DNA from: Promethearchaeota archaeon
GTDB taxonomy: Archaea > Asgardarchaeota > Lokiarchaeia > Sigyniarchaeales > SOKP01
DNA length: 21,320 nucleotides
Reading direction: 5' to 3'
Assembly (NCBI GenBank): GCA_018238625.1
Contig: JABCSY010000069.1
Coordinates: 1-21,320 of the forward strand
In this document: piece by piece, positions 2,503-18,739 of the stretch
Layout of the letters: each line of letters opens with the position of its first letter
Position numbering within the stretch: position 1 is the stretch's first letter
Program-made: the position numbers and the translations under genes
The notes under the pieces: model-generated
Databases searched by the model: none
Seen by the model: only the letters and a program-made list of their open reading frames with translations
Told to the model about the DNA's origin: nothing

Positions 2503-4764
2503 TTAAATATTTAATTTTTGGCGCCAAAAATTCATTTTCATTCTGAGGTCTTCTTTCTCTGGTTGACTTAGCACATATGTTTTATTCCGTAGAGTTGTAC
2601 TAGTATTATGGATGTTTTTCAACACGCTGTTATAGCCCGTTTCTTTTATGTATTCGCTCTGAAACTTTTCGAGAGCCGAAGAGAGTTCAATACCCATCAA
2701 GGAGTCGACATTATCAAAAATTAAGTCAAATTGTTTTGTTAACATAGATTTTTCCCCGGATGGCGTTGTTTTTGGAACAGGCACCTCTTTTTCTGGTGGA
2801 GCAATTACTTTTGGTATCTGAACTATTGGTTTTAATTTTACGTGTTCTTTTAGTGGTTCTTCAGCGATCTTAACGGGTTGTTTAGCTAATTTCGGTGGTG
2901 GAGTGTCTTGTACGATTGATGACTTAATAGCATGCATAACTTCCTTTCTTGCACCCATCCAGGATTCTTCGAGAATAGGGACAAAGATTTTGATATGTTC
3001 TTCTATAATGCTTCCTATTCCAGCAATCTCAGTTATAGACTCCCCTCTTACTTCTGCTTTTGAAAGCACGCATACGATTACTTCTTCGTAGTCACGATTT
3101 ATGCCCCATAAATTTTGCAAAGCACGGTGTCTATAATCAACATTATCCATTTTATCGAACTGTTGGACTACAGATGCGTGTTCTGGATTATTGAAATCTA
3201 TATTTGCGGCTATTCTGAAATTTATCCTTGAAGGGCGGGCCATTATTGCGTCAAGATCTACATCGCTGATTTGAGGGGCAATAAGTAACACTCTCATTTT
3301 TGCTTTTGAGATCTCATCGCTAATGTGTGCCTTAGCGGCTTCAGGTGAGCGAATGAACCAAATATCTTTCATTGTAATTGAGCTCCCGGTTTTCGCTTGC
3401 TCCCAGAATTCACTTGTGACTTTTTCGGATCTTTCGAGTTTATTCAATATATTATCAAGCGTATTATCTAAAGTCGCGACAATTCGGTCGTAAAAAACAT
3501 CTTTTAAATTGCCAAGCGATTTAAACGTCGTACCAGAGATTCCTTCTATTTTTTCTTCAGCCATTAGTATTGCTTTATTAAAATTTTCAGTAATCTCACT
3601 GTATATCTTTTCTTTATCTTCTGCTAACTGTGAGTTAAGACCATCAATATTTTCAAGGGCACTTTTTAACGATGTTTTCAATTTAGATATTACTTCAGAA
3701 TCAACGCCCGTTGGTTGAGTTGTTTTTTTTAGCTCGTCAGAAAAGGCAACTTGGCTTACGCTGAGTTGCACATTGATATTATCAGAGATATCGCTTAATT
3801 TTGCGTTTATAACCTTATCAATCACTTGTTCAACAGTTTGGGAGATTACTCCAAGACGTAATTTCTGCAGATTTTGAGAGACAGTTGATTTAATGTTCTC
3901 AAATTCGTTCTTCAAATCGTTAACTTGTCCTTTAATGATTTTAGACGTCTTTGTGTTAATATCATCAAACTGTTTTTTTAGATCTGTGATTTGAGGCGTT
4001 TCCATAGCCGAAACAGCAGCTCCTTCGAGGCTTGAGATTTCCTCTGAGATCCCTTTGATTTGATCCATTACAGCTAATGTGCCGTCAAGCTCTTTCTTCT
4101 GTGATTTCATCTGTGTTAGCATATTTTCTTTTAACTCTTTCATTAACTCCGTAGGTATGGGCTTTCTTTCAACTTTAACTTCAACCGTTCCAGACTCTGA
4201 TTCTAACTGCGCAAACGATTTTTCTAGTTGGGCAGGTATGCTGACTTTAATATCTGAGATATATTTGTGAAATTTTTGTAACTGGCTAACTAAGGCGGCA
4301 TATGGAGGTAGAGCGCTATAATGCGGTTTTGCTCCAATAATTTCCTTAAAAAGACCTTTCTTAACAAATTTAGTCGCCATTTCTTGACATTTAGCTTTAG
4401 GTTTTCCCGTTAAAATTGCCATTTCGCCGATACTAACGGCTTCACGACCCGTGATTCTGAAATACAATTCAATCTCGTCGTCAGAAAGATCAATTTCGCT
4501 CAAAACTTGTTTTGTAAGTTCTTTTGAATAGGAAACTTCTTCTTTTTTGAGCATTTCTTTTATTTCAAAATTCTCGACTTCTAAATATTGATTGAAATAA
4601 ACAACTAAATTATGTTCAGGAGATCCGTGTACAGCTTCTTTTTTTATCGGAAATTTAGAAACAGCTTGGTATTCCTTCTTGGTTATTTTAAAAGGGATTT
4701 CTTTCAAACATAATTTACATGTATACGGTATCTCTACTTCTTCATCATCTTTAAATAAATACAA
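2503..4764 (-). CDS. Large TrmB-like protein: N-terminal CxxC/HxxxxH putative Zn site, TrmB-type winged HTH, ~300-aa coiled coil, TrmB effector (PLD-like) domain, Pro-rich linker, C-terminal helical domain
   Basis: C16xxC19...H46GSPEH51. LSEIDLSDDEIELYFRI...SIGEMAILTGKPKAKCQEMATKFVKKGLF...HYSALPP matches the TrmB HTH pattern. DIWFIRSPEAAKAHISDEISKAKMRVLLIAP matches the start of the TrmB C-terminal domain. TTG start with GAGGAG 7 nt upstream. Confidence 0.7.
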   Translation of the reverse strand: MYLFKDDEEVEIPYTCKLCLKEIPFKITKKEYQAVSKFPIKKEAVHGSPEHNLVVYFNQYLEVENFEIKEMLKKEEVSYSKELTKQVLSEIDLSDDEIELYFRITGREAVSIGEMAILTGKPKAKCQEMATKFVKKGLFKEIIGAKPHYSALPPYAALVSQLQKFHKYISDIKVSIPAQLEKSFAQLESESGTVEVKVERKPIPTELMKELKENMLTQMKSQKKELDGTLAVMDQIKGISEEISSLEGAAVSAMETPQITDLKKQFDDINTKTSKIIKGQVNDLKNEFENIKSTVSQNLQKLRLGVISQTVEQVIDKVINAKLSDISDNINVQLSVSQVAFSDELKKTTQPTGVDSEVISKLKTSLKSALENIDGLNSQLAEDKEKIYSEITENFNKAILMAEEKIEGISGTTFKSLGNLKDVFYDRIVATLDNTLDNILNKLERSEKVTSEFWEQAKTGSSITMKDIWFIRSPEAAKAHISDEISKAKMRVLLIAPQISDVDLDAIMARPSRINFRIAANIDFNNPEHASVVQQFDKMDNVDYRHRALQNLWGINRDYEEVIVCVLSKAEVRGESITEIAGIGSIIEEHIKIFVPILEESWMGARKEVMHAIKSSIVQDTPPPKLAKQPVKIAEEPLKEHVKLKPIVQIPKVIAPPEKEVPVPKTTPSGEKSMLTKQFDLIFDNVDSLMGIELSSALEKFQSEYIKETGYNSVLKNIHNTSTTLRNKTYVLSQPEKEDLRMKMNFWRQKLNI

Positions 4765-4771
4765 TTCTTTA

Positions 4772-4777
4772 CTCCTC
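4772..4777 (-). promoter_or_regulatory. Shine-Dalgarno site (GAGGAG) for the TrmB-like gene
   Basis: ctcctc on the + strand, 7 nt from the TTG start at 4764. Confidence 0.7.
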
Positions 4778-4802
4778 TCGTTCTAGTTAATTAATTGGTG
4801 AT

Positions 4803-6059
4803 TTAAAAAGTGACTTTTTCTGGAAAGGATATTTCCAATAAGTTTAAGGCTTTTTTAGCGATTTCGTAAGTAATTTTTCCATCGGCGTCTTCCTTTCTAT
4901 AAGCTTCTCTGATTTTTGGTAGTAAATATTCTGGAAAAATTGTTAGTGGTTTGATGTCCGTAAGCAAACAAATCCAACTTCTTTTATTCTCGTCTTTAAT
5001 TTCAGTAATCACGTTTAATTTTTTCAGGTTGTCAAGCAAGATTTCAGTGACGGCAAACTCTGAAAAGATTTTTGGTATTTTATCTAGTGGATAATGGTTC
5101 GAACGCATTAAGACGAAAAAATCGTAAACATCAGGGTTAAGTAATATTGAAGCCAATTTTTTGGTATTTTCAAAAGGTTCTACAAAGGGATCGTAATTTG
5201 TGAAAAAGTCTGTAGACTTTTGCTTAAATAAAGGTAACAACTCGTTGTCTGTGTCTTTAAAATGTTTTAACAGACGCTCGTTGGGAACGCGGGCTATAAT
5301 TATGTCCTTGACTAAAAATAAATACTCTCCTTGATTTGTTATGATTCCAGTCTTTTTATCTTTCTCACCTTTTACCCAATCACGCCTTACTAAGTTCAAT
5401 TCTATAAAAGGTCTAAGTAAAATATCAATATTAGCAGTAGGTTTCATTTTTTCAACGGTTCTTTTCATTTCTCTTTTTGAAATGGGTTGTTCTCTTAAGA
5501 TTTCTAAGATTTTTAACCGTTCGTCGCTATTATAGATTAAAGCTACTTTTTGAAGTTTGTCTAATTGACTTAAACGCTCAATTTGAAATACGGTATACTT
5601 TAATTCGTTCATTAAGCGGACATTTACGTTGGAAACTAAATCCAATTGCCTCGTATTTACAGCTTTAGTTAATTTTTCAAAAATAGTATCTAATCTTTTT
5701 GCCATATCTTTAATTAAATCCTCAAACAATTCTATTTCGTCGTCTAATTCAAATATAGACATCGCAAGATATTGAGTTCCATCGGCTAACTGCTTGAAAT
5801 ACGACAAAACTTTATATGGCGTTTCTTTTAAGCGGCCAGTATAGAAGTTACTGAAGCCATATTTCATGCCAAAAATACCGGTGGTATGTTGATAGAACGT
5901 GGCAAATATATCGTTCTCTATGATTAGTTCTGAAAAGTCGTCTTCTTTAAATTTATCGTTCTTAAACACTAATTGAATTGGGCTAAATTCGGGATCTATC
6001 TCCCCTGTAGTTTCATTCTGATTCAATTTAAATTGAAACGTACATATCGATTGTATCAA
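4803..6059 (-). CDS. Hypothetical protein, probably an N-terminal longin/uDENN-like domain followed by winged-helix domains
   Basis: 418-aa ORF with a TTG start and upstream GAGG. The N-terminal beta-beta-alpha-beta-beta-beta-alpha pattern ends YLAMSIFELDDEIELFEDLIKDMAKRL. ERLKILEILREQPISKREM...NIDILLRPFIELNLVRRDW...YLFLVKD is wHTH-like. A second wHTH-like unit is VYDFFVLMRSNHYPL...LLDNLKKLNVITEI...WICLLTD. The CDS is secure, the domain call tentative. Confidence 0.55.
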   Translation of the reverse strand: MIQSICTFQFKLNQNETTGEIDPEFSPIQLVFKNDKFKEDDFSELIIENDIFATFYQHTTGIFGMKYGFSNFYTGRLKETPYKVLSYFKQLADGTQYLAMSIFELDDEIELFEDLIKDMAKRLDTIFEKLTKAVNTRQLDLVSNVNVRLMNELKYTVFQIERLSQLDKLQKVALIYNSDERLKILEILREQPISKREMKRTVEKMKPTANIDILLRPFIELNLVRRDWVKGEKDKKTGIITNQGEYLFLVKDIIIARVPNERLLKHFKDTDNELLPLFKQKSTDFFTNYDPFVEPFENTKKLASILLNPDVYDFFVLMRSNHYPLDKIPKIFSEFAVTEILLDNLKKLNVITEIKDENKRSWICLLTDIKPLTIFPEYLLPKIREAYRKEDADGKITYEIAKKALNLLEISFPEKVTF

Positions 6060-6298
6060 TTTGATTTGCCTCTAATTTTTTATAAGTAATAATAATTAAT
6101 AATTATTAATTAATAATTATGTCTTAAGTAATTTATTAACTTAAATTTAATCAATTAAATTATTTAAAATTCGCTATATTAACAAAAAAAGAGGGTAATT
6201 TTTTATACGATAATTTTGTTAATACTTAATTAGGGAAGATTAGAAATATAATGTATTTAAAAAAATAAATTAGTAAAAAATTAATTAAGTGATAAAAT
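6060..6298. promoter_or_regulatory. Divergent promoter region, very AT-rich
   Basis: A 239-bp non-coding gap between head-to-head genes with several TATA-like tracts and a perfect A/T-only 20-bp palindrome at 6093-6112. Confidence 0.55.
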
Positions 6299-7948
6299 TT
6301 GCTATTAAGGATAAAAAAAAGATTTGGAGTAATGTTTTTAATTACAACGATTATGATTTTTATTGTGCTACCCCTTTCATTACCTACCAATTTTGCAAGT
6401 AATAAAGAGCAATTAAATATTAACCTATCGGGTGAAACCACCCACACAGATGTTCTTTGGCTTGATAATCCAACATTCGAAGATCCTATTGAACCCATTT
6501 GGTTTCCCGATATTGAGGGAGATGAGTCAGATGTTGATACTAGTACAAGTCTAAATCAAGCAAATGTAGTTATAGTAGGAGAATCGCGAGAAAAAGAAGT
6601 TCTCCTCAATACGGCAACTCAATCAAATTGGATGGCTTTTTTAAAGAGTGACTTGGAAATTGTACCTCAACGTGCTTCTGTTCCATATTACGGAATAGAT
6701 GATGATGGAGCATGGTGTAGTCATTGGTGGTGGGAAGGAGAAGGTGGTGGACAACCAAAAAATACTCCTCGTATGCATTGGAAAACAAATGTGAGCATGC
6801 CCGTCGATATGTCTGATTATATCATTACATCACTATCATTTAACGCAATAATTAATGCCAGTGTAGACAGAAATATTGATGTAGATGGTGATACTACTGC
6901 TAGGTGGGTCCCCGGCGTAGCCGGTATAAATCAATTCCAAACCTATGATTATGCTCGATTTTATGTAGAAGTAACTACTTTGGATATTGATGTGTTGAAT
7001 ACTTATAGAATTGCATTTAATCAAACGAGGATACTAGGTAATGATACTCTTTCTTTTTACGATATAGAAGGATATATTGGAATCTATGAAGAACAAGCAA
7101 TAATTGACGCCTTAAACAATGTTTTAGCAGTAGATCCGGGTCATAATAATTTTACTATTGTTTTAGGAATATATATGTATTGCGAAGATAATTATTCTGG
7201 TACGGATCGCGATCACTGGGACGATATACGCTTTAAATTTCTTAACTTAACATTTTCATATGAAAAAAAGATAAATCAATTTACTTTCGGCTCATGGGCT
7301 CAAGATCTGGACGAAATAAGTGGTTCTAACATTCAAATAACTGATGCTAATCTTAATTTTAAATATAAAATAGATAAAAATTGGACAGAATCATCCCAAA
7401 ATTCAAAATTTTTGATTTTTATCAATGAGAGAAAATTCGATCCGAAGATGAGCTTAATAGATTATGAGTATTCAAGTGATTTTCAAGAAGCTGGAAGATT
7501 TGATATTACGGAAATATTGTTACCTTATGAAAATTTTACACTTTCAATCCAAGTTTTCCTAGCTGAAGATTTTGAATTAGAGAGTAATAGAACAATTTCT
7601 ATAACTGATGTTTATCTGTACATATCTTATATTGAAACTTTTTCGGATATTTTTTCAGAACCTTGGGTATTTGCGGGATTATTCATAATTGCTGTATTTG
7701 CAGCTACTGTATTAGGTGGTTACTTGATTGCTTATCAATCATATTTAAAATACCCCGTTCCAGTCAGAAAAGTGAGAAAGTATAGAAAAACGCTGTCTAG
7801 TGATAAAACTCCCGGTGTTGGTATTGTTAGTCAAAAGACTTCATTTAGTAAGCACTACCATGCCGAATTAAAAAAGACAGACAAGTTTTTAAAAGGCGCC
7901 CCTCTAGATGGTAAAATCGTACGGGATAAATTGATTGGAAAACAATAA
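6299..7948 (+). CDS. Membrane-anchored surface glycoprotein, paralog 1 (ectodomain type A, tail type X)
   Basis: Basic then hydrophobic N-terminal signal. Acidic beta-rich ectodomain starting WLDNPTF with many N-x-S/T sequons. TM EPWVFAGLFIIAVFAATVLGGYLIAY, then basic tail KYPVPVRKVRKYRKTL. Confidence 0.85.
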   Translation: MLLRIKKRFGVMFLITTIMIFIVLPLSLPTNFASNKEQLNINLSGETTHTDVLWLDNPTFEDPIEPIWFPDIEGDESDVDTSTSLNQANVVIVGESREKEVLLNTATQSNWMAFLKSDLEIVPQRASVPYYGIDDDGAWCSHWWWEGEGGGQPKNTPRMHWKTNVSMPVDMSDYIITSLSFNAIINASVDRNIDVDGDTTARWVPGVAGINQFQTYDYARFYVEVTTLDIDVLNTYRIAFNQTRILGNDTLSFYDIEGYIGIYEEQAIIDALNNVLAVDPGHNNFTIVLGIYMYCEDNYSGTDRDHWDDIRFKFLNLTFSYEKKINQFTFGSWAQDLDEISGSNIQITDANLNFKYKIDKNWTESSQNSKFLIFINERKFDPKMSLIDYEYSSDFQEAGRFDITEILLPYENFTLSIQVFLAEDFELESNRTISITDVYLYISYIETFSDIFSEPWVFAGLFIIAVFAATVLGGYLIAYQSYLKYPVPVRKVRKYRKTLSSDKTPGVGIVSQKTSFSKHYHAELKKTDKFLKGAPLDGKIVRDKLIGKQ

Positions 7949-7987
7949 GAAATACTTATTCAAAAATGAGTATTGAATTAATCAAAA

Positions 7988-8010
7988 TTCTTTTTTCACT
8001 TCTTTTTTTT
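7988..8010 (+). terminator. T-tract, putative terminator after paralog 1
   Basis: ttcttttttcacttctttttttt lies about 40 nt past the stop codon. Confidence 0.45.
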
Positions 8011-8142
8011 AATTGAGAAATAAACTAAAATATAATGAAATTATAATTTAAAATTATTAAATATTATAAGTGTGGCTAGCTATATCCTAATATATCCTAC
8101 AATTTTTAATTCATAAATTTTAATTATAAAAATGTGAATCTA

Positions 8143-9801
8143 ATGGCTATTAAATTTATCAAGAAGAAATTCTATGTTTATTTTGTTATTGTTCTCTTCA
8201 TCGCGTCTTTAAATTTAGTTGTATTGAATCAAAATCTAAACGTTGCAGAACAACAAACAATGATTAAAACCTCAACCGTAATTCCTCATACAAAAGAATG
8301 GCTTGTAAATAATGGTTTTGAAGGCTCGATTGATCCTTGGTTTTATAGCATAGAAGGTGACTCTTCCGATGTTAATGCTACTTTCAGCCCGGGTCAAGGC
8401 AATTTAGAAATCACTGGAGATCAAGGATACTTTTCAGAGATTTCAGGAACACCAACTTCGGACGATTGGTTAAACGTTACAAACCCTGCTTTCCCTGCTT
8501 TGCCAGATTATCACGGAATTGATGAATATGGGTGTGAAGCAAATCATACATGGATCGATCCTGATGATACAAACCAATCTCCAAGCGTTCATTGGCAACG
8601 AAATATAACAATGCCTATTAATATGGCAGATTATGTAATTTCTTCTGCATCTATTTCTGCAGTTTATAACGCATCAGTTACAACTCAACCTGGAGGTGAT
8701 CCAAACCCAAGTGACTATTATGGAGTAGATTGTCCTGGTGATGCCGTTCAAAATGCAGGTGATTACGATAGTGTTAGATTTTACATATTAATCTCAGATT
8801 TGGAAGATAACGAAAAATATGAAGTAGCGTGGTATCAAAGTACAGATTTAGGACAAGACAGTCCAGAAATTAGTAATATCACAGATAGTTTGATGAACAC
8901 TGTAGTAGAAGAAGCATTAATATTTTATTTAACCTCTCTTTTTGAGCGAGATAACTATAACTTTAAAGTTACTCTAGGAATTAGAATCAAATGTGTTGAT
9001 AATTGGAATTACGATCGTGATCGATGGGATTCTTTAAGAATTAAATCGTGTAATTTATCTTTTAATTATGTTAAAAAAATTAACCAATTCACAAGCGTTT
9101 CTTGGAACCAGATTGGAAACAACATTACGGGTGAGAATTTACAAATTACTGAGGCTAATCTCAAATTTAAGTATAAAATAGACCAATTATGGCCTACTGA
9201 TTTATCTCCAAACTCAGAAATACAAATTCTGTTAAACAATAACTCCCACGAAGAAGCTCTTAAACTGAATCTAGCATCAACCGGATTTCAAGAAGCGAAG
9301 CAAGGCGGTTTTAACGTTACTAAGTTGATTCTGAAAAATGTTAACATTGGACTTTCTATTCAAGTATATCTAGCAGATGGATTTTTATTAAATCGTTCAA
9401 TTGTTATATCGATTGACGATGTATCTCTCGTAATTTCATACATAGAAATTCGCTCAGATGTATTCGGTGAGCCAGAGATATTCCGTCTTCTAGCAATTAT
9501 TGCTGTAATTGCTGGAGGAATCGTAGCTACATATTTCGTGTTGTATCAAAGAATATTTAAATATCCATTACCAGTAAGAAAAGTGCGAAAATACAAAAAG
9601 ACTTTGAGAGCGGCTAATCCTCCAAAAAAACACATAACAAATAGTAAAGATGCTTTTAATAAGTTGTATAAAAAGGAATTAACTAAATCAGCAAAATATA
9701 CCAAAACTAAACCAGTATCACAACTTGATAAAATACATAAAAGTGTCGATACGAAAAAATCAACCAGCATTAAAAATACAGGAGGGTTAGAGCAGAAATG
9801 A
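8143..9801 (+). CDS. Membrane-anchored surface glycoprotein, paralog 2 (ectodomain type B, tail type Y)
   Basis: Same architecture: WLVNNGF, PSVHWQRNITMPINMADY, TM, then KYPLPVRKVRKYKKTL. Start placed at ATG 8143 because the track's GTG 8134 lies in a GTGA SD-like motif. Confidence 0.85.
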   Translation: MAIKFIKKKFYVYFVIVLFIASLNLVVLNQNLNVAEQQTMIKTSTVIPHTKEWLVNNGFEGSIDPWFYSIEGDSSDVNATFSPGQGNLEITGDQGYFSEISGTPTSDDWLNVTNPAFPALPDYHGIDEYGCEANHTWIDPDDTNQSPSVHWQRNITMPINMADYVISSASISAVYNASVTTQPGGDPNPSDYYGVDCPGDAVQNAGDYDSVRFYILISDLEDNEKYEVAWYQSTDLGQDSPEISNITDSLMNTVVEEALIFYLTSLFERDNYNFKVTLGIRIKCVDNWNYDRDRWDSLRIKSCNLSFNYVKKINQFTSVSWNQIGNNITGENLQITEANLKFKYKIDQLWPTDLSPNSEIQILLNNNSHEEALKLNLASTGFQEAKQGGFNVTKLILKNVNIGLSIQVYLADGFLLNRSIVISIDDVSLVISYIEIRSDVFGEPEIFRLLAIIAVIAGGIVATYFVLYQRIFKYPLPVRKVRKYKKTLRAANPPKKHITNSKDAFNKLYKKELTKSAKYTKTKPVSQLDKIHKSVDTKKSTSIKNTGGLEQK

Positions 9802-11438
9802 ATAAATCGCGAAAAAACAAGAAATCAGTATATTTTATAACGCTATTTTTAATTTTTGGTATGATCTTCTTAAGTTCTTTAAATATTCAAAACCAGAATC
9901 TAAAGAAAAATATGGAGTATAATACGCTTAAACTTTCAACAATAAAAGAATATCAAAAACAATGGTTGAAAAATTCTAATTTTTCAATACCAGTTGATCC
10001 ATGGGAAAGTCAAGTTCAAGGAGACGCTTCTGATATAAATTCCTTTTCTAGCGTTGGTCAAGCAAATTATGAAGTTATAGGGGAACAGAGAAGTTATTCA
10101 AATATATCTGGTACTCCTTTAAGTTCAGAATGGACGAAAGTTCATAATCCTGAATTCCCCTTATACCCAGATACATCCACAATAAATTCTGATGGTTGTT
10201 ATGTTTCTCATACCTTTGCAGAAGGAGCTGATCAATTTCCAAGCGTTCATTGGGAGAGAAATGTTTCAATGCTAGTTGATATGGAAGACTACATAATAAC
10301 TTCTGCCTCTCTTTCAGCTGTAGTAAATGCTTCAGTTACAGCTTCCCCGGGAGATTGGGGTGGGGGGGGGATAGAAGCTCCAGGTGATGCTACAGGTTCT
10401 GGTAGTACTCAAAATTATACATGGGATTATGTTAGGTTCTATGTATTATTATCAGATTTGACGAAAACTAAAGTCTATGAAGTTGCATATAATCAAACTA
10501 TTGATCTTGGGACAGATTTAGCTGGTGCAACTGATACAATGCTTGATACATTTATGGCAACAGTATCGGAAGAAGATTTGATTTTTTATCTCACCTCCAT
10601 TTTATCAAGTGATTTTCAAAATTTTACAATTACTTTAGGAATTCGAATCTGGTGCGAGGACAATTGGTGGAGTGACCGTGATATATGGGACGCTTTACTT
10701 ATAAAATCTTGTAATCTCACATTTACTTACGAAAAAAAGATTGATCGCTTTACAACAGCATCCTGGAACCAAATTGGAAACACGATCAGTGGAGAAAATA
10801 TCGAAATTACTGGCGGAAACCTCAAATTTCAATATAAAATTGACCAATTATGGCCAGTAGGTTCATCTCCAAATTCGGAAATACGCTTTTTTATAAATGA
10901 TAATTCTTTGTTAGAAACTATTAAGTTAAGCTCAGCAACCACCAATTTTCAAGAGGCAAAAACAGAAGGTTTTGATGTAACAACATTGATTTTAAAAGAC
11001 GTTAATATCTCAGTTTCAATTCAAGTATTTATAGCAGACACTTTTGCGTTAAATCAAAACATCACTATTTCGATAACAGATGTGTATTTAGAGATTTCTT
11101 ATACGGAGTTCATTCGTGACACTGAAGAAACACCTTGGTTTTTTAGTGGAATATTTATAATTGCTCTCATAGCGGTAGGCGCATTATCGGGGTTTTTAAT
11201 TGCTTACATTAAAGTATGGCGATATCCCGTTCCTGTTCGAAAGGTCCGTAAATATAATAAGACTTTAGCAAAAGAAAAAGGTCCTGATTTGAAAATTGTT
11301 ACGCGTAAGACTGCTTTCAATAAGAATTATCACGAAGAGCTAAAAAAAACAGACAAAATTCTAACAGGCACTCAGATGGATGGAAAAATATTGAAAGATA
11401 AATTGCTCGACAAAAAAGAAGGGGCATTACCAAAATAA
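9798..11438 (+). CDS. Membrane-anchored surface glycoprotein, paralog 3 (ectodomain type B, tail type X)
   Basis: ATGA overlap with paralog 2 and GGAGGG at 9781-9786. WLKNSNF, PSVHWERN, TM TPWFFSGIFIIALIAVGALSGFLIAY, then RYPVPVRKVRKYNKTL. Confidence 0.85.
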   Translation: MNKSRKNKKSVYFITLFLIFGMIFLSSLNIQNQNLKKNMEYNTLKLSTIKEYQKQWLKNSNFSIPVDPWESQVQGDASDINSFSSVGQANYEVIGEQRSYSNISGTPLSSEWTKVHNPEFPLYPDTSTINSDGCYVSHTFAEGADQFPSVHWERNVSMLVDMEDYIITSASLSAVVNASVTASPGDWGGGGIEAPGDATGSGSTQNYTWDYVRFYVLLSDLTKTKVYEVAYNQTIDLGTDLAGATDTMLDTFMATVSEEDLIFYLTSILSSDFQNFTITLGIRIWCEDNWWSDRDIWDALLIKSCNLTFTYEKKIDRFTTASWNQIGNTISGENIEITGGNLKFQYKIDQLWPVGSSPNSEIRFFINDNSLLETIKLSSATTNFQEAKTEGFDVTTLILKDVNISVSIQVFIADTFALNQNITISITDVYLEISYTEFIRDTEETPWFFSGIFIIALIAVGALSGFLIAYIKVWRYPVPVRKVRKYNKTLAKEKGPDLKIVTRKTAFNKNYHEELKKTDKILTGTQMDGKILKDKLLDKKEGALPK

Positions 11439-11643
11439 TAGATTTCCTTTCTATATCTGATGCAAAAAAAGTAACTCTAAAAATACTAATTTTTTCTTAC
11501 ATTGTAATCCAATGATATTAATAAGATCTAGACTAAATATTAAATGTTAAACTAAATTATTAATAAGTATTTCCTTATAGGAATTATTTAGTCTAAAATT
11601 TTAATAATTTAAAATTATTTAAATTTGGTAAAGGGTGAATATT

Positions 11644-14600
11644 ATGGTTATTAATAAAAAGACCAAGGCAAAACATGTTATTGCACTTTTATGTCTCATT
11701 TTTATTGGGAATCTTTCAAATATTTTCATGTTAAACTTAAATAGTCATAATAATGATTTAAGAGATATTCACCCCAAATCTGAAGGAATTATTCAAGATG
11801 ATTATACTATTGAATGGCTAGATAATCCTACATTTGAGACTCCAATAACGCCGTGGTATAACGCAACTCAAGGAGATACATCTGATATAAATGCTACTAC
11901 AGATCTCAACCAAGCGAATTATAAAATACTGGGCGATTCAGGAGTATTACAAGTTGATGACGCTTTGAGTAGTTCAGATTGGACTGTTTTTCGAAATCCA
12001 GGAAGACCTGTTTTACCAGATACTTATGGTATAAGTTCTGCTGGCGCTGAAGTATACCACCTCTGGGATGAGGGTGTAAACCAAACGCGTAATACGCCTA
12101 GTATTCACTGGAAAAGAAATATTCAAATGCCAGTAAATATGTCTGATTATATTATTACTTCAGCATCATTAGAAGTAGTTTTTAACGCTACTGTAACTGT
12201 TTCACCTCATTCAAGCGGAGGTATAGATAGGGAGGGTGATGCGGGATTGAGTGCTTACGCAATTGGTGATTTTGCTGAATTCTATATTTTAATTTCGGAT
12301 ATTAATAATACTCAAGAATATCAATTGGCATATTATCAAACTGTTGATTTAGGGCAAGACGACCCAGCAACCCCGAGTATTGCAGATACTATTCTAGATT
12401 CTGTACCTGAAGATGTCTTAATTAGCTTGTTATCAGCGGTTTTAAGTATTGATAATTATAATTTTACCATAACAATGGGAATTGATATATACTGCGAAGA
12501 TAATGAATATGGAGCAGATGAAGATGAATGGAATTCACTATTAATGAAATCACTAAATTTAACATTTAGTTATAGGAAAAAAATAGATAAGTTTACTTCA
12601 CTCTCATGGAATCAAATTGGAGATACAATCAGTGGAGCAAATATTGATATTAAAAATGCTACACTAAATTTTAAATATAAGATTGATAAGACTTGGACAG
12701 AAGAATCTCCAAATTCAGAATTAAGGTTTTTCATTAATAATAATCAGTATCCAGAGGCTGTTAAATTAAGTACAGCTACTGCTATATTTCTAGATGCCAA
12801 AGTAGGGGGATTTGATGTAACCAATCTAATCTTAAAGAATGTTAATATCACTCTTTCAATTCAATTGTATTTAGCAGATACATTTCCTTTAGATCAAGAA
12901 TTCACTCTTTCAATTGATAATGCATCGCTATTAATATCTTATACTGAAACCACTATTGAAGAGACAACCAGTTTGGAGATTTTTCTAAATGACGAGGATA
13001 AAACTTTAGAAAAATCAATTGAAGTCACTATGGGTAATCCGGTTAATATTACTACTATATATAAAGATTCAACAGACAATTTTATACAATATGCTACAGT
13101 ACAGTTGGGGGGATTAGGATTACCTAAGAATTTAACAGAAAATAGTTCGCTGGAACATTATAATATTACTATTCATTCTTCGAACTTGCAGATTGGTAAT
13201 AATTACTTAACTATATCTGCGAGTAAAAAGTATTATGAATCAATAGAAGTTCTAATCAATATCAAAGTACTTGAAAGAAACACAGATTTACAACTCTTTT
13301 TAGATGGGACAAACAAAACCCTGGATAAATCTATACAAATGATATATGGGAATGATGGGAACATAACAATATCATACAAAGACATTGAACAACTCCCATA
13401 TACTCATATCGATGGAGCAACTGTTGAATTAATAGGGTTAGCTACCCCAGAAAATTTAACAGAAGATCCCTCAAATGAACAATATTTTATATTAATCAAC
13501 ACTATGGATCTCGGTTTAGGTAACAGTTTCCTCACTGTTAATGCATATAAAGAAAATTATACTACTCAATCCATTCGTTTTAAAATAGAAGTGCTTGAGA
13601 GAAATTGTTATATAGATAACATAAATTTAAACGGAATTGAAGCCATATCTATAGAGATTCCTTGGAATGAAACTTTAAGCATTTCAATATCTTATAATGA
13701 CAGCTTTACAAATGCTTTTATAGACGGAGCTTTGGTACAACTTTCGGGGACTGGAATTTCTGAAAGCTTCACAGAAAATTCACCAATAGAATATACTTTA
13801 GATATCAACACAGCATTAATGGCGCTTGGCATTAATTTTCTAACGATTTCAGCTAATAAAGAGAATTACACTCTTTCTTCGAGAATAATTTCTATATCTG
13901 TCATTGAAAGAGACACTAAAGTTGATGTTTATCTAAATGGTACGCTGTCATCTAATTTTGAATTTTACAATATTTCTATTGGAGAAAAATTAAACATTAC
14001 TGTTTTTTATAAGGATTTGAACACAGACGCTTTCCTTAATTCTGCGAATGTTCGACTCATTGAATCTGGGATTCCAACAGATTTAACTGAGAGCTTAATC
14101 TTTAACCAATATTATATCACTATAAATTCTGATGATTTAGGAGTAGGAGTCAAATTTTTAACTATAAGCGCAAAAATAGAAAATTATACATTAACTTCAG
14201 AAGTAATAACACTTATAGTAAATGAAAAGAAAACTCAACTACTACTTTTTCTTAATGGATCTCAGTATAATAATGGAGATACTATCGAATTGGAAATAAC
14301 TGATAAATTAAATATCACTGTAAAATATCTAGATAACATTACGAAAGAATATCTCGGTGGTGCAGATGTTGATATAATAAACCAAGGAGATATGACAGAA
14401 AATGCATTACTAGAGCATTACAATATAACGATAGATATAATTGATTTAAATAGCACTTTAAATAGGATGGTCATCCGTGCTCAAATAGAAAATTACCAAA
14501 CAGCCCTTATTGAGTTTTTCATACAAATTATTGAAAGAGGGTCCACTGGCGAGCTTTTTATCAACGAATTAAATAAAACCGCAGATCCTTATATTGAGCT

Positions 14601-15468
14601 TACTATAGGTTCTCTTCTTAATTTAACTATCAAATATAGTGATATACGAACAGAAAATCATATTTCAGGTGCTATTGTTCAGTTAAATGGAGATTTAACG
14701 GGTTTGTTATCTGAATATATAGCTTTAGAACAATATTCTATAATAATAAATACGACTGATTTGGGAGTTGGATTAAATATCTTTACTATAATTGCGGAGA
14801 AAGCAAATTTCGAGTTGTTTTTAATCCAAAAATTATATGTAATTGTAGAGAGAATACATACAAATATTACAACAATTTCAGGGGAGTCAAATATAGTTAT
14901 AAGACCCGGCGAAAGTGTTAATTTAAGAATTGTAATAAACAACTTAGACTTTGGAGGTTTAGTGAAGGGGGCTAGTGTTACATATAGATGGGCTCGTGGT
15001 GAAGGTTTCTTAACTGATAATGATAATGATGGCATATATACAGTATTATTAACAGATATTCCGGAAGGTTCATTCACTCTTACAATAAATGCATATAAGG
15101 GTGAAGATTACGATTTTACATCATATGAACTGGTAATTAGTGTTATTAGACCGGCAGAAGAAATATTACTTTTTCAAATACTAATGATTGTTTCAAGTAT
15201 AGTTGCAGCGAGTGCGTTGATTTATCTATATCTATATCAAAAGGTATTAAAGTATCCTAAACAAGTTAGAAAAGTTAGAAAATTTAAGAAAACGCTTAGA
15301 AAAACAAAAATTCCAAGAATTGATATAACGGAGAGAGAAAAAGCTTTCAATGTTGAATACAAAAGTGAATTAAATAAAACATCCAAATTATTAAAAGTAA
15401 AACCCGTAGAACAAATTACTAAACCAGAACAAATTATAAAGAAACCAATTGAAACTTCTAAGAGTTAA
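11644..15468 (+). CDS. Large membrane-anchored surface glycoprotein, paralog 4 (ectodomain type A, seven Ig-like repeats, tail type Y)
   Basis: Head domain starts WLDNPTFETPITPW, followed by a ~730-aa repeat stalk, TM and KYPKQVRKVRKFKKTL. Start placed at ATG 11644, 5 nt after GGGTGA (SD); the track uses GTG 11635. Confidence 0.85.
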   Translation: MVINKKTKAKHVIALLCLIFIGNLSNIFMLNLNSHNNDLRDIHPKSEGIIQDDYTIEWLDNPTFETPITPWYNATQGDTSDINATTDLNQANYKILGDSGVLQVDDALSSSDWTVFRNPGRPVLPDTYGISSAGAEVYHLWDEGVNQTRNTPSIHWKRNIQMPVNMSDYIITSASLEVVFNATVTVSPHSSGGIDREGDAGLSAYAIGDFAEFYILISDINNTQEYQLAYYQTVDLGQDDPATPSIADTILDSVPEDVLISLLSAVLSIDNYNFTITMGIDIYCEDNEYGADEDEWNSLLMKSLNLTFSYRKKIDKFTSLSWNQIGDTISGANIDIKNATLNFKYKIDKTWTEESPNSELRFFINNNQYPEAVKLSTATAIFLDAKVGGFDVTNLILKNVNITLSIQLYLADTFPLDQEFTLSIDNASLLISYTETTIEETTSLEIFLNDEDKTLEKSIEVTMGNPVNITTIYKDSTDNFIQYATVQLGGLGLPKNLTENSSLEHYNITIHSSNLQIGNNYLTISASKKYYESIEVLINIKVLERNTDLQLFLDGTNKTLDKSIQMIYGNDGNITISYKDIEQLPYTHIDGATVELIGLATPENLTEDPSNEQYFILINTMDLGLGNSFLTVNAYKENYTTQSIRFKIEVLERNCYIDNINLNGIEAISIEIPWNETLSISISYNDSFTNAFIDGALVQLSGTGISESFTENSPIEYTLDINTALMALGINFLTISANKENYTLSSRIISISVIERDTKVDVYLNGTLSSNFEFYNISIGEKLNITVFYKDLNTDAFLNSANVRLIESGIPTDLTESLIFNQYYITINSDDLGVGVKFLTISAKIENYTLTSEVITLIVNEKKTQLLLFLNGSQYNNGDTIELEITDKLNITVKYLDNITKEYLGGADVDIINQGDMTENALLEHYNITIDIIDLNSTLNRMVIRAQIENYQTALIEFFIQIIERGSTGELFINELNKTADPYIELTIGSLLNLTIKYSDIRTENHISGAIVQLNGDLTGLLSEYIALEQYSIIINTTDLGVGLNIFTIIAEKANFELFLIQKLYVIVERIHTNITTISGESNIVIRPGESVNLRIVINNLDFGGLVKGASVTYRWARGEGFLTDNDNDGIYTVLLTDIPEGSFTLTINAYKGEDYDFTSYELVISVIRPAEEILLFQILMIVSSIVAASALIYLYLYQKVLKYPKQVRKVRKFKKTLRKTKIPRIDITEREKAFNVEYKSELNKTSKLLKVKPVEQITKPEQIIKKPIETSKS
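12961..15150 (+). repeat. Seven tandem ~104-aa Ig-like beta-sandwich repeats
   Basis: Recurring NIT(V/I)xYxD...GAxVxL...LTE...YxIxIxxxxLxxG...LTIxAxxENY pattern. Units end VLER, VLER, VIER, VNEK, IIER, IVER and VIRP. Confidence 0.8.
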
Positions 15469-15606
15469 AAATCAAATCACTATAATAAATTAATTTTTTA
15501 TTTTTCAATTTTTAATTTTCATTTAATATAACTTTTTATTGGGTATTATAATTTTAATCTATACTAAAGAAAATTGAAATATTATCATAACTTAATGATT
15601 TTATAG

Positions 15607-16668
15607 ATGAGTTCTAATATTAAAATTTTTAAGTTAAATTATTCTGGAACCTTTAAGGAAATTTCAGAAGAGAAAATACTCCTTAGCTTTACTCTGTTTG
15701 ATATTTTAACGTTTTACGTGCCAGATCAAAGGTTAATGTATATTTGGATTGGGAAAAAAGTCTCCCAAAGCTTGAAAAAACTTATCCCACAAATACGAGG
15801 AGCTATTTCAAGTGAGTATCCCGAATTAAAAATTTTAAGAAACATTACAATCGAATCGGGATTAGAACCTGCGGAATTTTTAAGTATTATTGGGATTACA
15901 GAAGAGAGATTGAAAGCTAGAATTAAAAAACTAGAGATAGACTTGTTACCAATTCTCTCTGAAATAAACAGGTTAAAAGAAAAAGTAGATAAATATTTCA
16001 TTTCAGAAAATTATAATATGGCAATTGATGCCGCTCAGAAAATTGTTAACCTTGCCAAGGATATAGACGATGATTCTCTTGAGCAAGATCAAATAAATTT
16101 TATCAACGAAGCTCGAGCGAGAGAGAGCGCCAGCGAGATTCTCCACCAAATAGAGCACAATAGTAAGGAAGCGATTAAGAGATTTGACCAGTTAGTGGAA
16201 GTAGAGAATTATCGAGAGGCACATAGCATAGCGGAACATTTCAAAAAAAAATACGATAATGAATACGACATTTCTTCGATTCCCTTAGCCCAGCAATTAA
16301 TATTAAAAGACGAAAACATGATATATAGTTTGAAAATCGAACAAACAAAGATAAAAAAGGAAATTGATGAATTCTACAATTCTTTCAAGACAGGTCCCAA
16401 TAAAGGTAATTTAAAGCAAGCAAAAGAATTTTTTGGAAAGATTAAAGCTGAGATTAAGAATTTATTCGATGATGATGTTATAAATAGTTTGAAACAATTT
16501 GAAACCCAATATAATGAAGCAAAAAAAGAAACAGTTAGTGAGATAGCTCAAGTAAGTATGGAAGCCCTTAATAATTTGGAAAAAGGTGAAATATCTAAAG
16601 CTATAGAAATCTTTGAAAAAATTATCAAAAAATTAGAATTTACCAATAAAACTTTGACGGGTGCATAG
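15607..16668 (+). CDS. Gelsolin-domain protein with a C-terminal helical/coiled-coil region (Asgard 1DGelX-like architecture)
   Basis: The first ~97 aa show gelsolin-repeat hallmarks: IKIFKL, DILTFY..., MYIWIGKK and IESGLEPAEFLSII (xxGxEPxxF). The remainder is amphipathic helical with TPR-like AIDAAQKIVNLA and AIEIFEKII. Confidence 0.75.
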   Translation: MSSNIKIFKLNYSGTFKEISEEKILLSFTLFDILTFYVPDQRLMYIWIGKKVSQSLKKLIPQIRGAISSEYPELKILRNITIESGLEPAEFLSIIGITEERLKARIKKLEIDLLPILSEINRLKEKVDKYFISENYNMAIDAAQKIVNLAKDIDDDSLEQDQINFINEARARESASEILHQIEHNSKEAIKRFDQLVEVENYREAHSIAEHFKKKYDNEYDISSIPLAQQLILKDENMIYSLKIEQTKIKKEIDEFYNSFKTGPNKGNLKQAKEFFGKIKAEIKNLFDDDVINSLKQFETQYNEAKKETVSEIAQVSMEALNNLEKGEISKAIEIFEKIIKKLEFTNKTLTGA

Positions 16669-16670
16669 TA

Positions 16671-17639
16671 TTGGATTTAAACTCAGACAAAGAGACTAAT
16701 AATAAGAAAAAAATAGTAGTTCTATCTAAAATTGATGAGTTGAAAGTAATAGCGAATAACCACTATCTAATGGGAAAGTTTGATGACGCAATAAAAGTAG
16801 CAGAAGAAATAATGGATATAGCCGAAGAGGCTAAACTATATTCTATGGTAAGGGAAGAAGGAGAGTTCATTGCGGACCTTTATAAAAAAGTTAAAGAAAA
16901 TAATAAATTTATTGAAATTGAAAATCAACAAAATACTCTAAAAAAACAACTTGAACCATTAGAAATCCAGTTTAATAGCTATATAAGTACTAATAATCTC
17001 ACATTAGCAGAAGAAACGTTAGAACAAGCAAAAAAACTTCTGGAAAAGCTTAAAGATACCGAAACGCTGAAAATGTGGGAAACTTCTGAAGCAATGTTTT
17101 TAGAATTAAAAAAAAGAATTGATATCAATGAAGACATTGAACTTTCCTTAGCAGAAGTTTCAGGATTAATAGATAATTACGAATTTGATAAGGCAAAACA
17201 AATACTTAACTCTAAAATAGAATTATTGCAAAAAGAAGATTTCTCAGATTCTCAACAGAAATTAAAAATAAAAATGAAAAGTTTAGTTGATGCTGAGGAT
17301 AAATATATTAAATTAGAAGAAGAACTAAAAGATTTAGAAAGCGAAATTAAACAAAATGTTTCTCAAAATCAATTTGAGCAAGCAATAAACAATATTAAGA
17401 AAATTATTAAAATTTCAAGATTTATTGGTAAAAATCATTATTTAGAGAAATATACTGAATATATTGATATTATTGAAAATAAGATAAGGGAAGTTTCCAA
17501 AAGCGAAGAATTTAAAATTAAGGTTAACAATTTAAACATCCAAGGTATCGAAGCCTTGAAATACGACGATTATTCTGGAGCTCTTGAAATATTTAAAGAA
17601 ATATTGTCCCAATTAAAAGCTGTATTTAATAAAAAATAG
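16671..17639 (+). CDS. Helical/TPR-like coiled-coil protein, paralogous to the non-gelsolin part of the upstream protein
   Basis: Starts 2 nt after the upstream stop, with a TTG start and a GGGTG SD. LSKIDELKVIANNHYLMGKFDDAIKVAEEIMDIA aligns with upstream LSEINRLKEKVDKYFISENYNMAIDAAQKIVNLA. ALEIFKEILSQL aligns with AIEIFEKIIKKL. Confidence 0.7.
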   Translation: MDLNSDKETNNKKKIVVLSKIDELKVIANNHYLMGKFDDAIKVAEEIMDIAEEAKLYSMVREEGEFIADLYKKVKENNKFIEIENQQNTLKKQLEPLEIQFNSYISTNNLTLAEETLEQAKKLLEKLKDTETLKMWETSEAMFLELKKRIDINEDIELSLAEVSGLIDNYEFDKAKQILNSKIELLQKEDFSDSQQKLKIKMKSLVDAEDKYIKLEEELKDLESEIKQNVSQNQFEQAINNIKKIIKISRFIGKNHYLEKYTEYIDIIENKIREVSKSEEFKIKVNNLNIQGIEALKYDDYSGALEIFKEILSQLKAVFNKK

Positions 17640-17744
17640 TTTTTATTCTCTTCTTAATAACCGGTTTAATTAATATCAATCGGTTTATAATTTTTTAACG
17701 AAGGTATTAAATAGTATAAAATCAATTTAATTTTTGGATAAAAA

Positions 17745-18191
17745 TTGATCCAAGAGATTATTATTCTTAATGACAAGGGTATTCCCATATTTTGCCATGA
17801 TTTTAGCGGTAGTTCAAATGAGGATAATAAATATCAATTAATTGGTAGTTATTTCGACCAACTCTGCCGATTTGCCAAATACGGGTTCAAGGAGAGTTTA
17901 ACCACCATAAAAATGAATAAAAGCGTATTTTATTTTAAAACTCATCCTAACACTAATTTTCATCTAATAATAAAATGCGACAGTAAAATCGATAGTAAAA
18001 AGCTTAAAAAAAAATCGATTGATAATATTGCTATTAAAATCTTTGATAATTTCTTTGTTAAATTTAAAAGCGAACTGATGGATTTCAACGGAAATATTAC
18101 TCCTTTTAAACGATTCTCAAAAGATATTGATGAGATGATAAAACCTAAAGGGCTTTTAAGAAGTTTTGTAATAAGTCCTGGAGTTTTCTAA
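17745..18191 (+). CDS. Stand-alone longin-domain protein (Asgard type, sybindin/sigma-adaptin-like fold)
   Basis: 148 aa. MIQEIIILNDKGIPIFCHDF beta hairpin, LIGSYFDQLCRFAK helix, three strands (LTTIKM, FYFKT, FHLIIKCD), and C-terminal FxxKF...FNGNITPFKRFSKDIDEMI. Confidence 0.75.
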   Translation: MIQEIIILNDKGIPIFCHDFSGSSNEDNKYQLIGSYFDQLCRFAKYGFKESLTTIKMNKSVFYFKTHPNTNFHLIIKCDSKIDSKKLKKKSIDNIAIKIFDNFFVKFKSELMDFNGNITPFKRFSKDIDEMIKPKGLLRSFVISPGVF

Positions 18192-18739
18192 ATTTTGAAG
18201 CAAGCTAATATCAGAGCATCGTGATATTGATTACCATCAATATTAAGATATTTTCTTAATATTCCTTCCTCTTCGAAGTTAGAATTTTTAAACATTTTAA
18301 TGGACCTTTCATTTTTAACAGCGATATGTGCTTCGAGTCTATTCAGATTTAAATGAATAAAAGCAATATTTTTAACTAAATCTATTACTCGTTTACCTAA
18401 TCCTTTCTCCCAATATTCTGGAAGAATCCATATTCCAACACCGGAACGATTATGAAACCAAGATATATTCCAGAGACTAACTGAACCAATCCTACTTTTA
18501 CTTTTATCGTCTCGTAATTCTATAATGTAATTAAATTGAAGGTATTTATCCCAAGATCTTAGATAATTTTTGATTAATCTTCTTGAATGCTCTAAAGATC
18601 TTAGCGGGCCTAGCGACAAAAAATTAGTCATCTCTTTATTAGTAAGACTATTGTAAAAAAAAGAGATGTCATCTTTAGAAACCTTCCTAAGAAAAAGATT
18701 TCCTTCGTTAATTTCATCGATTATTTCGATATTTGCCAT
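18188..18739 (-). CDS. GNAT N-acetyltransferase, RimJ/RimL family
   Basis: LFLRKV, IGSVSL, GVGIWILPEYWEKGLGK (acetyl-CoA loop), LNLNRLEA, NERSIKMF and FEEEGILRK. Its stop overlaps the longin gene stop in CTAA at 18188-18191. Confidence 0.92.
   Translation of the reverse strand: MANIEIIDEINEGNLFLRKVSKDDISFFYNSLTNKEMTNFLSLGPLRSLEHSRRLIKNYLRSWDKYLQFNYIIELRDDKSKSRIGSVSLWNISWFHNRSGVGIWILPEYWEKGLGKRVIDLVKNIAFIHLNLNRLEAHIAVKNERSIKMFKNSNFEEEGILRKYLNIDGNQYHDALILACFKI

Follow-up and report, generated by a model that had tools for sequence, protein, structure and literature searches.

Do the genes clustered at the start of one Lokiarchaeial contig form a single system that links the cell surface to actin, or has the neighbourhood been assembled from parts that belong to different systems? 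The stretch of DNA considered here, which we call the window, spans bases 1 to 21,320 of contig JABCSY010000069.1 in the 4.29-Mb, 201-contig genome of a Promethearchaeota archaeon (GC content ~30%). Seven open reading frames (ORFs), all on the + strand, occupy positions 6299-18191: four paralogous membrane proteins (receptors R1-R4), a gelsolin-like protein with a helical domain X (GelX), a paralogue with domain X alone (X-only) and a small longin protein. Two further genes, U418 and U753, named for their lengths in residues, lie divergently upstream. Cultured Lokiarchaeia have an actin cytoskeleton and form protrusions, and an earlier reading made from the DNA letters without database searches (the sequence-only reading), which placed the seven co-oriented genes correctly, took them for one receptor-to-actin system. 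We believe instead, with a probability of about 0.6, that the genes of the stretch fall into two separable modules and do not form a single system of seven. Module A (2503-15468) would combine the four N-glycosylated single-pass surface paralogues with the divergent U418 and U753. Module B (15607-18191), composed of a 1DGelX-type gelsolin (a single gelsolin domain followed by helical X), its X-only paralogue and the small longin, is most likely an actin-regulating cassette that would have come to sit between the receptors and a GNAT acetyltransferase gene in genus g1, to which the window belongs, and in one sister genus.

The two groups of genes part company as soon as receptor loci outside genus g1 are inspected. 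Twelve such loci, from families f2, f3, f6 and f7, contain U418 in 10 cases and U753 in 9, one or both being present in 11, and in none of the 12 is there a match to GelX, X-only or the small longin. The trio of receptor, U418 and U753 survives rearrangement: beside the divergent form seen in the window we find the orders U418>U753>R, R>R>U418>U753, U753>R>U418 and R>U418>U753, often with the genes overlapping or less than 120 nt apart. In family f2, for its part, eight GelX loci include no receptor, no U418 and no U753. Closer to the window, in the sister genera of its own family f1, receptor and U418 profiles are matched in all 24 genomes and lie within 4 kb of each other on one contig in at least 20, a lower bound counted among the matches listed, with three receptor candidates scored per genome. 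GelX is matched in 10 of these 24 genomes, twice as X fragments only, and 14 gave no GelX match. Where a full GelX is present (eight genomes), X-only follows it in seven, a receptor adjoins it only in genome G191, and the small longin likewise adjoins it only there, although one other locus keeps a trace of 60 aa. G191 has the order receptors - small longin - GelX - X-only - GNAT, so that the cassette occupies the same place and is internally reshuffled. The complementary arrangement is found at locus L080 of genome G068, where MBL-U753-U418 / R R / GNAT-ECH-HADH (ECH, enoyl-CoA hydratase; HADH, 3-hydroxyacyl-CoA dehydrogenase) reproduces the frame of the window without GelX, X-only or small longin. 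On these comparisons GelX is dispensable and mobile. GelX and X-only, adjacent in 27 of 28 loci of family f1, act as a pair of their own, and two families link the small longin type with GelX.

Within genus g1 the picture is uniform. GelX, X-only, small longin and GNAT follow one another in that order in all 20 loci, a receptor gene precedes GelX in 19 (the remaining contig ends 47 nt past GelX), and U418 stands on the far side in the 14 loci that reach far enough. Because unrelated flanking genes are kept as well, we regard this pattern as synteny of the whole neighbourhood among kin. It nonetheless speaks for the model of the sequence-only reading, wherein the basic tails directly recruit the mildly acidic GelX and X-only, the small longin is an accessory, and binding at the surface is tied to the severing or nucleation of actin. 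The same adjacency recurs in G191, the charges are suitably opposed (tail pI ~10.2, net charge -9 for the X domain and -12 for X-only), and the related 1DGelX of Thorarchaeota acts on actin. That reading had proposed conservation of the neighbourhood across Asgard genomes as its own test, and here the gelsolin side gives way: GelX is missing from all 12 receptor loci outside the genus and unmatched in the 14 sister-genus genomes that have receptors, it lies away from receptors in seven of eight sister-genus genomes and in all eight f2 loci, L080 keeps the frame without the cassette, the tail is nearly invariant where GelX falls to 34% identity, and structure prediction confidently places the tail on U418. 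Direct recruitment of the X domains would therefore seem quite improbable. The expected link to a longin gene does hold almost everywhere, but the gene is U418; recruitment of a cytoplasmic adaptor by the tails likewise becomes more plausible, although comparison and modelling point to U418 (with U753), and not to the pair of X-domain proteins, as that adaptor.

The prediction in question concerns the sole pair modelled, U418 (14-row alignment) with the R3 tail, residues 470-546 (35-row alignment). Three runs returned ipSAE interface scores of 0.77, 0.76 and 0.77, against 0.01 for the best of three controls, with contact agreement between runs of at least 82% and a partner pLDDT of at least 69. 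Of 80 solved complexes 58 attain the ipSAE mark applied, as do 2 of 110 mismatched pairs, a rough calibration only, as own alignments were used. Tail residues 477-524, which cover both conserved tail motifs, are laid on U418 residues 252-292 and 370-412, away from the longin domain. The predicted interface comprises 37 U418 residues and takes in 8 of the 25 invariant U418 columns (hypergeometric p 6e-4; 5e-3 when the C-terminal half alone is considered). The model thus supports binding of the receptor tail to the winged-helix half of U418.

Conservation agrees with such a pairing. Nothing in the receptors is better conserved than the tail: the nearly invariant motif KYPxPVRKVRKYxKTL immediately follows the membrane, and AFNKxYxxEL, also conserved, lies ~20 residues beyond it. 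Within the genus, identity ranges over 78-97% for U418, 34-92% for GelX, 32-93% for X-only and 34-88% for the small longin. We infer that U418 and U753 are the conserved partners of the receptors, because the tail is almost invariant, U418 is held at 78-97% while the three cassette proteins drift, and the trio outlives repeated rearrangement across the class Lokiarchaeia. A general pathway for module A can then be proposed. The conserved juxtamembrane tail (KYPxPVRKVRKY...AFNKxYxxEL) would dock on the winged-helix/C-terminal half of U418. The longin domain of U418 would thereby stay available for what longin domains commonly do, namely to offer a platform to a small GTPase or to a second longin/roadblock protein; U753 would be the likely output or scaffold, and the whole would connect outside to inside as an adaptor system that serves sensing, adhesion or the sorting of surface proteins. 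The putative roles of U418, U753 and GelX go a step beyond the gene content, folds, homologies and synteny counts observed, and the docking is a prediction.

Several observations weigh against this account. The score of the complex is the model's own confidence and no measurement, and the predicted interface shows no significant excess of conserved tail positions (6 of 10, p 0.11). The winged-helix assignment of U418 comes from the order of secondary structure in the model plus one weak Pfam match, the fold searches being good for residues 1-209 only, and the role suggested for U753 leans on a weak, sub-threshold similarity to TrmB. In other Asgard classes, 4 of 10 U418 loci (families f12 and f31) lack an adjacent single-pass protein, so that pairing is not universal. 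The presence of the cassette beside receptors in 19 of 20 g1 loci and in G191 could reflect selection for adjacency, not inheritance. Finally, the genomes within one genus or family are kin, and counts over them are not independent events.

The receptors themselves conform to what the sequence-only reading had seen in them. R1-R4 are 39-44% identical to one another, and each consists of an N-terminal hydrophobic segment, an ectodomain, a single C-terminal transmembrane (TM) segment and a cytoplasmic tail of 72-94 aa as delimited by crude TM limits. The tails carry 18-25 lysines and arginines versus 5-9 acidic residues, as befits the strongly basic tail that had been described, and the ectodomains bear 11-36 N-x-S/T sequons where shuffled sequences average 4.6-17.7, an excess of about twofold. 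Copy number varies from one to five receptor genes per locus. No Pfam or NCBIfam family reaches its cut-off in any of them, and ESM Atlas matches for R3 and U418 lead to Promethearchaeota clusters without names only. In a phylum sample of 201 genomes the ectodomain is limited to families f1 and f2, with further matches in f3, f6 and f7 of the same class.

U418, by comparison, is found in 133 of the 201 sampled Asgard genomes, across many families. Its AlphaFold2 (AF2) model (pLDDT 84.9, pTM 0.79) opens with a longin-like domain, continues through a helical hairpin and two winged-helix-like units, and closes with helices at the C-terminus, in agreement with the longin-like/winged helix-turn-helix gene that the sequence-only reading had placed divergently upstream. 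The N-terminal domain has the longin fold: by VIA it matches 8yqg_B, a Lokiarchaeota Roadblock-Longin protein (Z 10.9, rmsd 3.7 A, 144 aligned residues), along with Lst4 (Z 10.9), FLCN (Z 10.7) and then GATOR1, TRAPP and AP subunits, and the longin-domain entries matched include 8yqg, 4zy8 and 6nzd; the Foldseek match is weak (E 3.4e-3). In the second part (residues ~168-374) the order of secondary-structure elements in the model fits three helices plus a beta wing, twice over, and a match to Pfam HVO_A0261_N, at 18.9 bits, falls short of the cut-off (35). No solved chain matched the longin plus two winged helices as a whole, and a U418 family profile run against PDB sequences gave nothing meaningful. 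Neither U418 nor U753 has a Pfam or NCBIfam match above cut-off. U753 scores 19.9 bits for TrmB (cut-off 25.6), its homologues score 17.6-24.2 bits, and its family profile matches the TrmB structure 3qph with E 2.9e-4; by sequence, then, U753 is TrmB-like and falls outside the filed TrmB membership.

Adjacency of U418 to a membrane protein with a cytoplasmic tail extends beyond what shared ancestry would give, since it is seen in 10 of 12 receptor loci outside the genus, at 4 of 4 loci in the window's own genome and in 6 of 10 loci of other Asgard classes. In this genome all four ORFs of the U418 family abut an ORF of the class 'C-terminal TM + tail', a crude category (tail of 50-220 aa) that holds 41 of 3425 ORFs. 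Three of the four are 367-aa paralogues that directly follow surface proteins of 934-1429 aa with basic tails bearing R.ARIP.FVKK; one of the surface proteins so paired has a lectin-like Laminin_G_3 domain above the Pfam cut-off, and sub-threshold CarboxypepD_reg matches also occur among U418-paired proteins. In the six loci from other classes the neighbour is a single-pass protein of 862-1595 aa with a related juxtamembrane motif, and two of the six were caught by the receptor profile through their TM and tail region alone. A tree of 32 U418 proteins divides into two well-supported clades, the first tied to the Lokiarchaeia receptors and the second made up of this genome's 367-aa paralogues and those of other classes. 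Because the 367-aa paralogues group with those of other classes, we regard the two U418 types as old paralogues. Tail-motif labels (partner within 3 kb, tail under 260 aa) also cluster on this tree, with 8 changes against a shuffled mean of 14.6 and 0 of 200 shuffles as low; we do not count this as evidence, because related genomes carry the same labels and the Lokiarchaeia clade accounts for 8 of the 13 'none' labels, many of which the labelling rule itself produced.

A broader role in the cell envelope deserves consideration at this point. The receptors might be structural glycoproteins of a cell that lacks an S-layer, the tail/U418 contact serving insertion, sorting, anchoring or turnover, and GelX being unrelated. 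The sequon-rich, repeat-bearing ectodomains, present in one to five copies per locus, would suit such proteins, as would the Laminin_G_3 and CarboxypepD_reg matches among U418-paired proteins elsewhere, and a cultured Lokiarchaeon seen by cryo-tomography has a surface with many unordered proteins and no ordered S-layer (PMC9834061). An adaptor with a longin platform, accompanied by a winged-helix and coiled-coil partner, nonetheless exceeds the needs of anchoring, and Pfam and NCBIfam scans of the module found no secretion or glycosylation genes. We consider a purely structural role unlikely, and continue to prefer an adaptor module beside a separate gelsolin cassette.

The proteins of that cassette are divergent, but their relationships can be established. 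The gelsolin-plus-helical architecture noticed in the sequence is borne out by a match of GelX residues 30-98 to PDB 7c2f_B, a gelsolin-like chain, at E 3.4e-5, and by the GelX family profile (24 sequences), which matches 7c2f_B at 5.5e-5 and the Loki 2DGel structure 7whg at E 5e-3. GelX has the 1DGelX architecture, a single gelsolin domain and then helical X. Pfam Gelsolin (PF00626) does not reach it, and since the same model matches four other loci of the genome and not GelX, the gelsolin domain of GelX is taken to be a divergent member. Those four loci, all above the cut-off and outside the window, are C148:62437-62937, C152:22883-23080, C150:34323-34526 and C48:12949-13155; one of them comprises two domains in a 354-aa frame.

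The X-only protein is likewise the gelsolin-less paralogue it had been thought to be: hhalign relates it to the X domain of GelX (residues 110-345) with a probability of 99.8% and E 6e-29, although a direct BLASTP of one window protein against the other finds no significant match (E 0.24), the homology emerging only via profiles and relatives. X-only shows weak TPR matches in Pfam, and neither it nor GelX has a Pfam or NCBIfam family above cut-off. At 322 aa it equals its three closest relatives, most other genus members having 347-392 aa; the ~53-60 residues that it lacks are missing after residue ~83. Among the 201 phylum genomes the X domain, searched by family profile, is limited to f1 and f2, and elsewhere the gelsolin part alone is matched, weakly, in four genomes. 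A third, short X paralogue lies at C37:490-894 (matching GelX residues ~109-246), with frames of ~160-200 aa in many genus genomes, unlinked to the locus.

For the 148-aa protein at 17745-18191, the longin call is upheld by its fold. The AF2 model (pLDDT 73.2, pTM 0.70) has the order b-b-a-b-b-b-a-a of strands and helices, and the top 25 Foldseek matches (E<=1e-3, from 5.6e-5, TM score up to 0.63) are all longin domains, the best among them AP sigma/mu, TRAPP, SRX, VAMP7 and Sec22b. Sequence searches against Pfam, NCBIfam and PDB, single or by profile, gave no match, which leaves it outside curated longin membership. A broken copy with five internal stops, 59% identical over residues 2-66, is found in the same genome at C74:40246-40446. 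In family f2 the GelX proteins are longer, 323-914 aa, plus one 1362-aa frame seen in a separate search only, and three of the eight loci have beside GelX a TPR protein of 680-693 aa that ends in a homologue of the small longin (hhalign E 3.5e-10). An origin of X-only and small longin by splitting of such a gene finds no support, the TPR part of the f2 protein matching X-only with an hhalign probability of 5.5%. A protein of 1248-1487 aa is the constant neighbour of the long f2 GelX forms (L071:11141-15604, L074:5015-9478, L072:9935-13684 and L076:7113-10859).

A receptor-to-actin link is possible, and the presence of two longin proteins flanking the receptors suggests how it might be made. 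One could suppose that U418 is the tail adaptor everywhere and that in genera g1 and g22 the gelsolin cassette was recruited to it, for example if the small longin pairs up with the longin domain of U418, so that the receptor reaches actin via U418. Solved longin complexes among our fold matches include FLCN-FNIP, Mon1-Ccz1 and AP sigma/mu, whose longins pair as heterodimers; the cassette stays beside the receptors in two genera despite its internal reshuffle; and the small-longin-like domain fused to a TPR protein beside long GelX, in 3 of 8 f2 loci, ties this longin type to GelX. Since the small longin is not beside GelX in seven of eight sister-genus loci, and adjacency to the receptors is confined to two genera, we doubt that the bridge exists. 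The most ambitious version, that Asgard archaea possess an ancient, widespread two-gene device in which a single-pass tail motif is read by the longin plus winged-helix adaptor U418, as a forerunner or analogue of cargo-tail/adaptor recognition in eukaryotes, and that this device is wired here through a second longin to the gelsolin-X pair as a primitive outside-in link to actin, strikes us as similarly speculative. With two separable modules as the preferred reading, the cassette may lie next to the receptors in two genera for a functional reason or through inheritance alone.

The features of the locus, together with the comparable loci mentioned above, are listed in Table 1.

Table 1. Positions of genes, gene parts and intergenic regions in the window, and of related gene pairs and neighbours elsewhere (C, other contigs of the same genome; L, loci of family f2).
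Feature	Position	Strand	Remarks
U753 (753 aa)	2503..4764	-	TrmB-like winged helix, long coiled coil, conserved C-terminal domain
U418 (418 aa)	4803..6059	-	longin, residues ~1-165 (nt 5565-6059); remainder, nt 4806-5558
Divergent intergenic region U418/R1	6060..6298		239 nt, 13% GC
Receptor R1 (549 aa)	6299..7948	+	type-I-like glycoprotein, basic tail
Receptor R2 (555 aa)	8134..9801	+	3' end overlaps R3 start by 4 nt
Receptor R3 (546 aa)	9798..11438	+	receptor paralogue
R3 cytoplasmic tail, residues 470-546	11205..11435	+	piece used in complex prediction; predicted contacts 477-524
Receptor R4 (1277 aa)	11635..15468	+	same ectodomain, at least 6 tandem ~105-aa repeats, TM, same tail
Gap R4/GelX	15469..15606		138 nt, 12% GC; four T-runs (5-6 T) right after R4 stop
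GelX (353 aa)	15607..16668	+	gelsolin-like, residues 30-98 (nt 15694-15900); X, residues 110-345 (nt 15934-16641)
X-only paralogue (322 aa)	16671..17639	+	start 2 nt past GelX stop
Gap X-only/small longin	17640..17744		105 nt, 18% GC; T-runs, TATA-like words
Small stand-alone longin-fold protein (148 aa, pI 9.4)	17745..18191	+	AF2 fold
GNAT acetyltransferase	18188..18739	-	convergent; block boundary, conserved frame; Pfam Acetyltransf_3 E 6e-21
Surface protein + 367-aa U418-family protein	C157:136-5529		stop/start abutting
Surface protein + 367-aa U418-family protein	C139:27197-31104		stop/start abutting
Surface protein + 367-aa U418-family protein	C93:1-4519		stop/start abutting
f2 TPR-longin protein beside long GelX	L071:6100-8181	-	conserved N-terminal AEWDE.LGP, TPR (Pfam), C-terminal longin
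f2 TPR-longin protein beside long GelX	L069:11508-13562	+	conserved N-terminal AEWDE.LGP, TPR (Pfam), C-terminal longin
f2 TPR-longin protein beside long GelX	L073:6971-9013	-	conserved N-terminal AEWDE.LGP, TPR (Pfam), C-terminal longin

The two T-rich gaps to which the sequence-only reading had drawn attention, after R4 and before the small longin, are as described. Apart from the R2/R3 and GelX/X-only junctions, the spacers between genes measure 105-196 nt, have a GC content of 12-18% and carry T-runs past the stop codon. TATA-like words stand 27-30 nt before the next start at two junctions and only 7-9 nt before R2 and GelX; in the gap preceding the small longin they lie ~30 and 61 nt upstream of its start. 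As to expression, words from positions 9000-18500 are nearly absent from three metatranscriptome runs of one study, and no listed RNA run covers the stretch. Downstream and convergent to the block, Pfam identifies the GNAT acetyltransferase, an enoyl-CoA hydratase and a 3-hydroxyacyl-CoA dehydrogenase; the hydratase (18844-19794, -) ends in a CxxC...CxxC zinc-ribbon-like tail with a weak DnaJ_CXXCXGXG match (E 7.7e-4). At the other end of the window, positions 2-1399 (+) hold a 5'-truncated ORF for a surface protein with a NosD/right-handed beta-helix domain (Pfam E 2.9e-27), a weak Big_13 Ig-like match below the Pfam cut-off, a C-terminal TM segment and a very short basic tail without the U418-type motif.

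How does this arrangement compare with systems already described? The eukaryotic counterparts first brought to mind are integrin/talin and cadherin/catenin, and the likeness, by analogy only, is that of a single-pass adhesion-type receptor with a short conserved tail, a cytoplasmic adaptor and a nearby gene for an actin regulator. The seven proteins, U418 and U753 give no Pfam match at E<=0.1 to integrin, cadherin, FERM/talin or vinculin/catenin; moreover, the U418 adaptor has no actin-binding domain, and linkage to an actin regulator is seen in two genera only. U753 resembles TrmB regulators in having an N-terminal TrmB-like winged helix and then a coiled coil, and differs from them in its sub-threshold Pfam score, its length of 753 aa, an unrelated conserved C-terminal part and its linkage to membrane receptors. 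Closer is the Asgard 1DGelX. Thor 1DGelX is reported to sever and nucleate rabbit actin in vitro, independently of calcium (Akil et al. 2020, PMC7444086), and the same paper describes 1DGelX in Thorarchaeota as one gelsolin domain plus a helical domain X of no assigned function. The gelsolin part of GelX matches the Thor structure 7c2f, deposited with that paper (PMC7444086), and in GelX too an N-terminal gelsolin/cofilin-like domain precedes the helical one. Such biochemistry is known only for the Thor protein, and GelX may bind, sever or nucleate actin likewise. In the window, unlike the Thor case, X also occurs as a separate, adjacent paralogue, and GelX escapes the Pfam Gelsolin model; the resemblance between the two X domains is one of architecture, the window X profile matching X only in f1 and f2.

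Novelty must be apportioned with the same care. 1DGelX, the longins of Asgard archaea and their NPRL2-like longin families are already in print, the last in a preprint that reports them from Asgard genomes (10.1101/2020.10.19.343400). The receptor family, the longin plus winged-helix adaptor U418 and the gelsolin-longin-receptor neighbourhood are undescribed in the full text of the literature searched, and supplementary asCOG lists may name U418. Homologues of the window proteins are filed as 'hypothetical', bar three evidently unrelated automatic names, and the close ones are labelled 'Candidatus Lokiarchaeota archaeon' or 'Promethearchaeota archaeon'. The comparison corrects an attractive but over-reaching interpretation of a gene neighbourhood, and the locus supplies testable parts in its place: a receptor family with a short invariant tail, an unannotated longin/winged-helix family and a gelsolin-X pair that is sometimes adjacent to them.

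Regardless of how the gelsolin cassette came to lie where it does, the longin platforms offer a comparison for the adaptor itself. AP complexes bind the cytoplasmic tails of membrane proteins, much as U418 is predicted to bind the tails of the receptors. The small longin and the N-terminal domain of U418 share the fold of AP sigma/mu, TRAPP, SRX, FLCN/Lst4, NPRL2 and the Loki protein 8yqg; they differ from these in having no sequence-level membership, and the tail contact predicted for U418 is on its winged-helix half, not on its longin domain. If true, this contact would be the first pair of receptor tail and adaptor described in archaea, and it would give a function to part of the large longin repertoire of the Asgard archaea.

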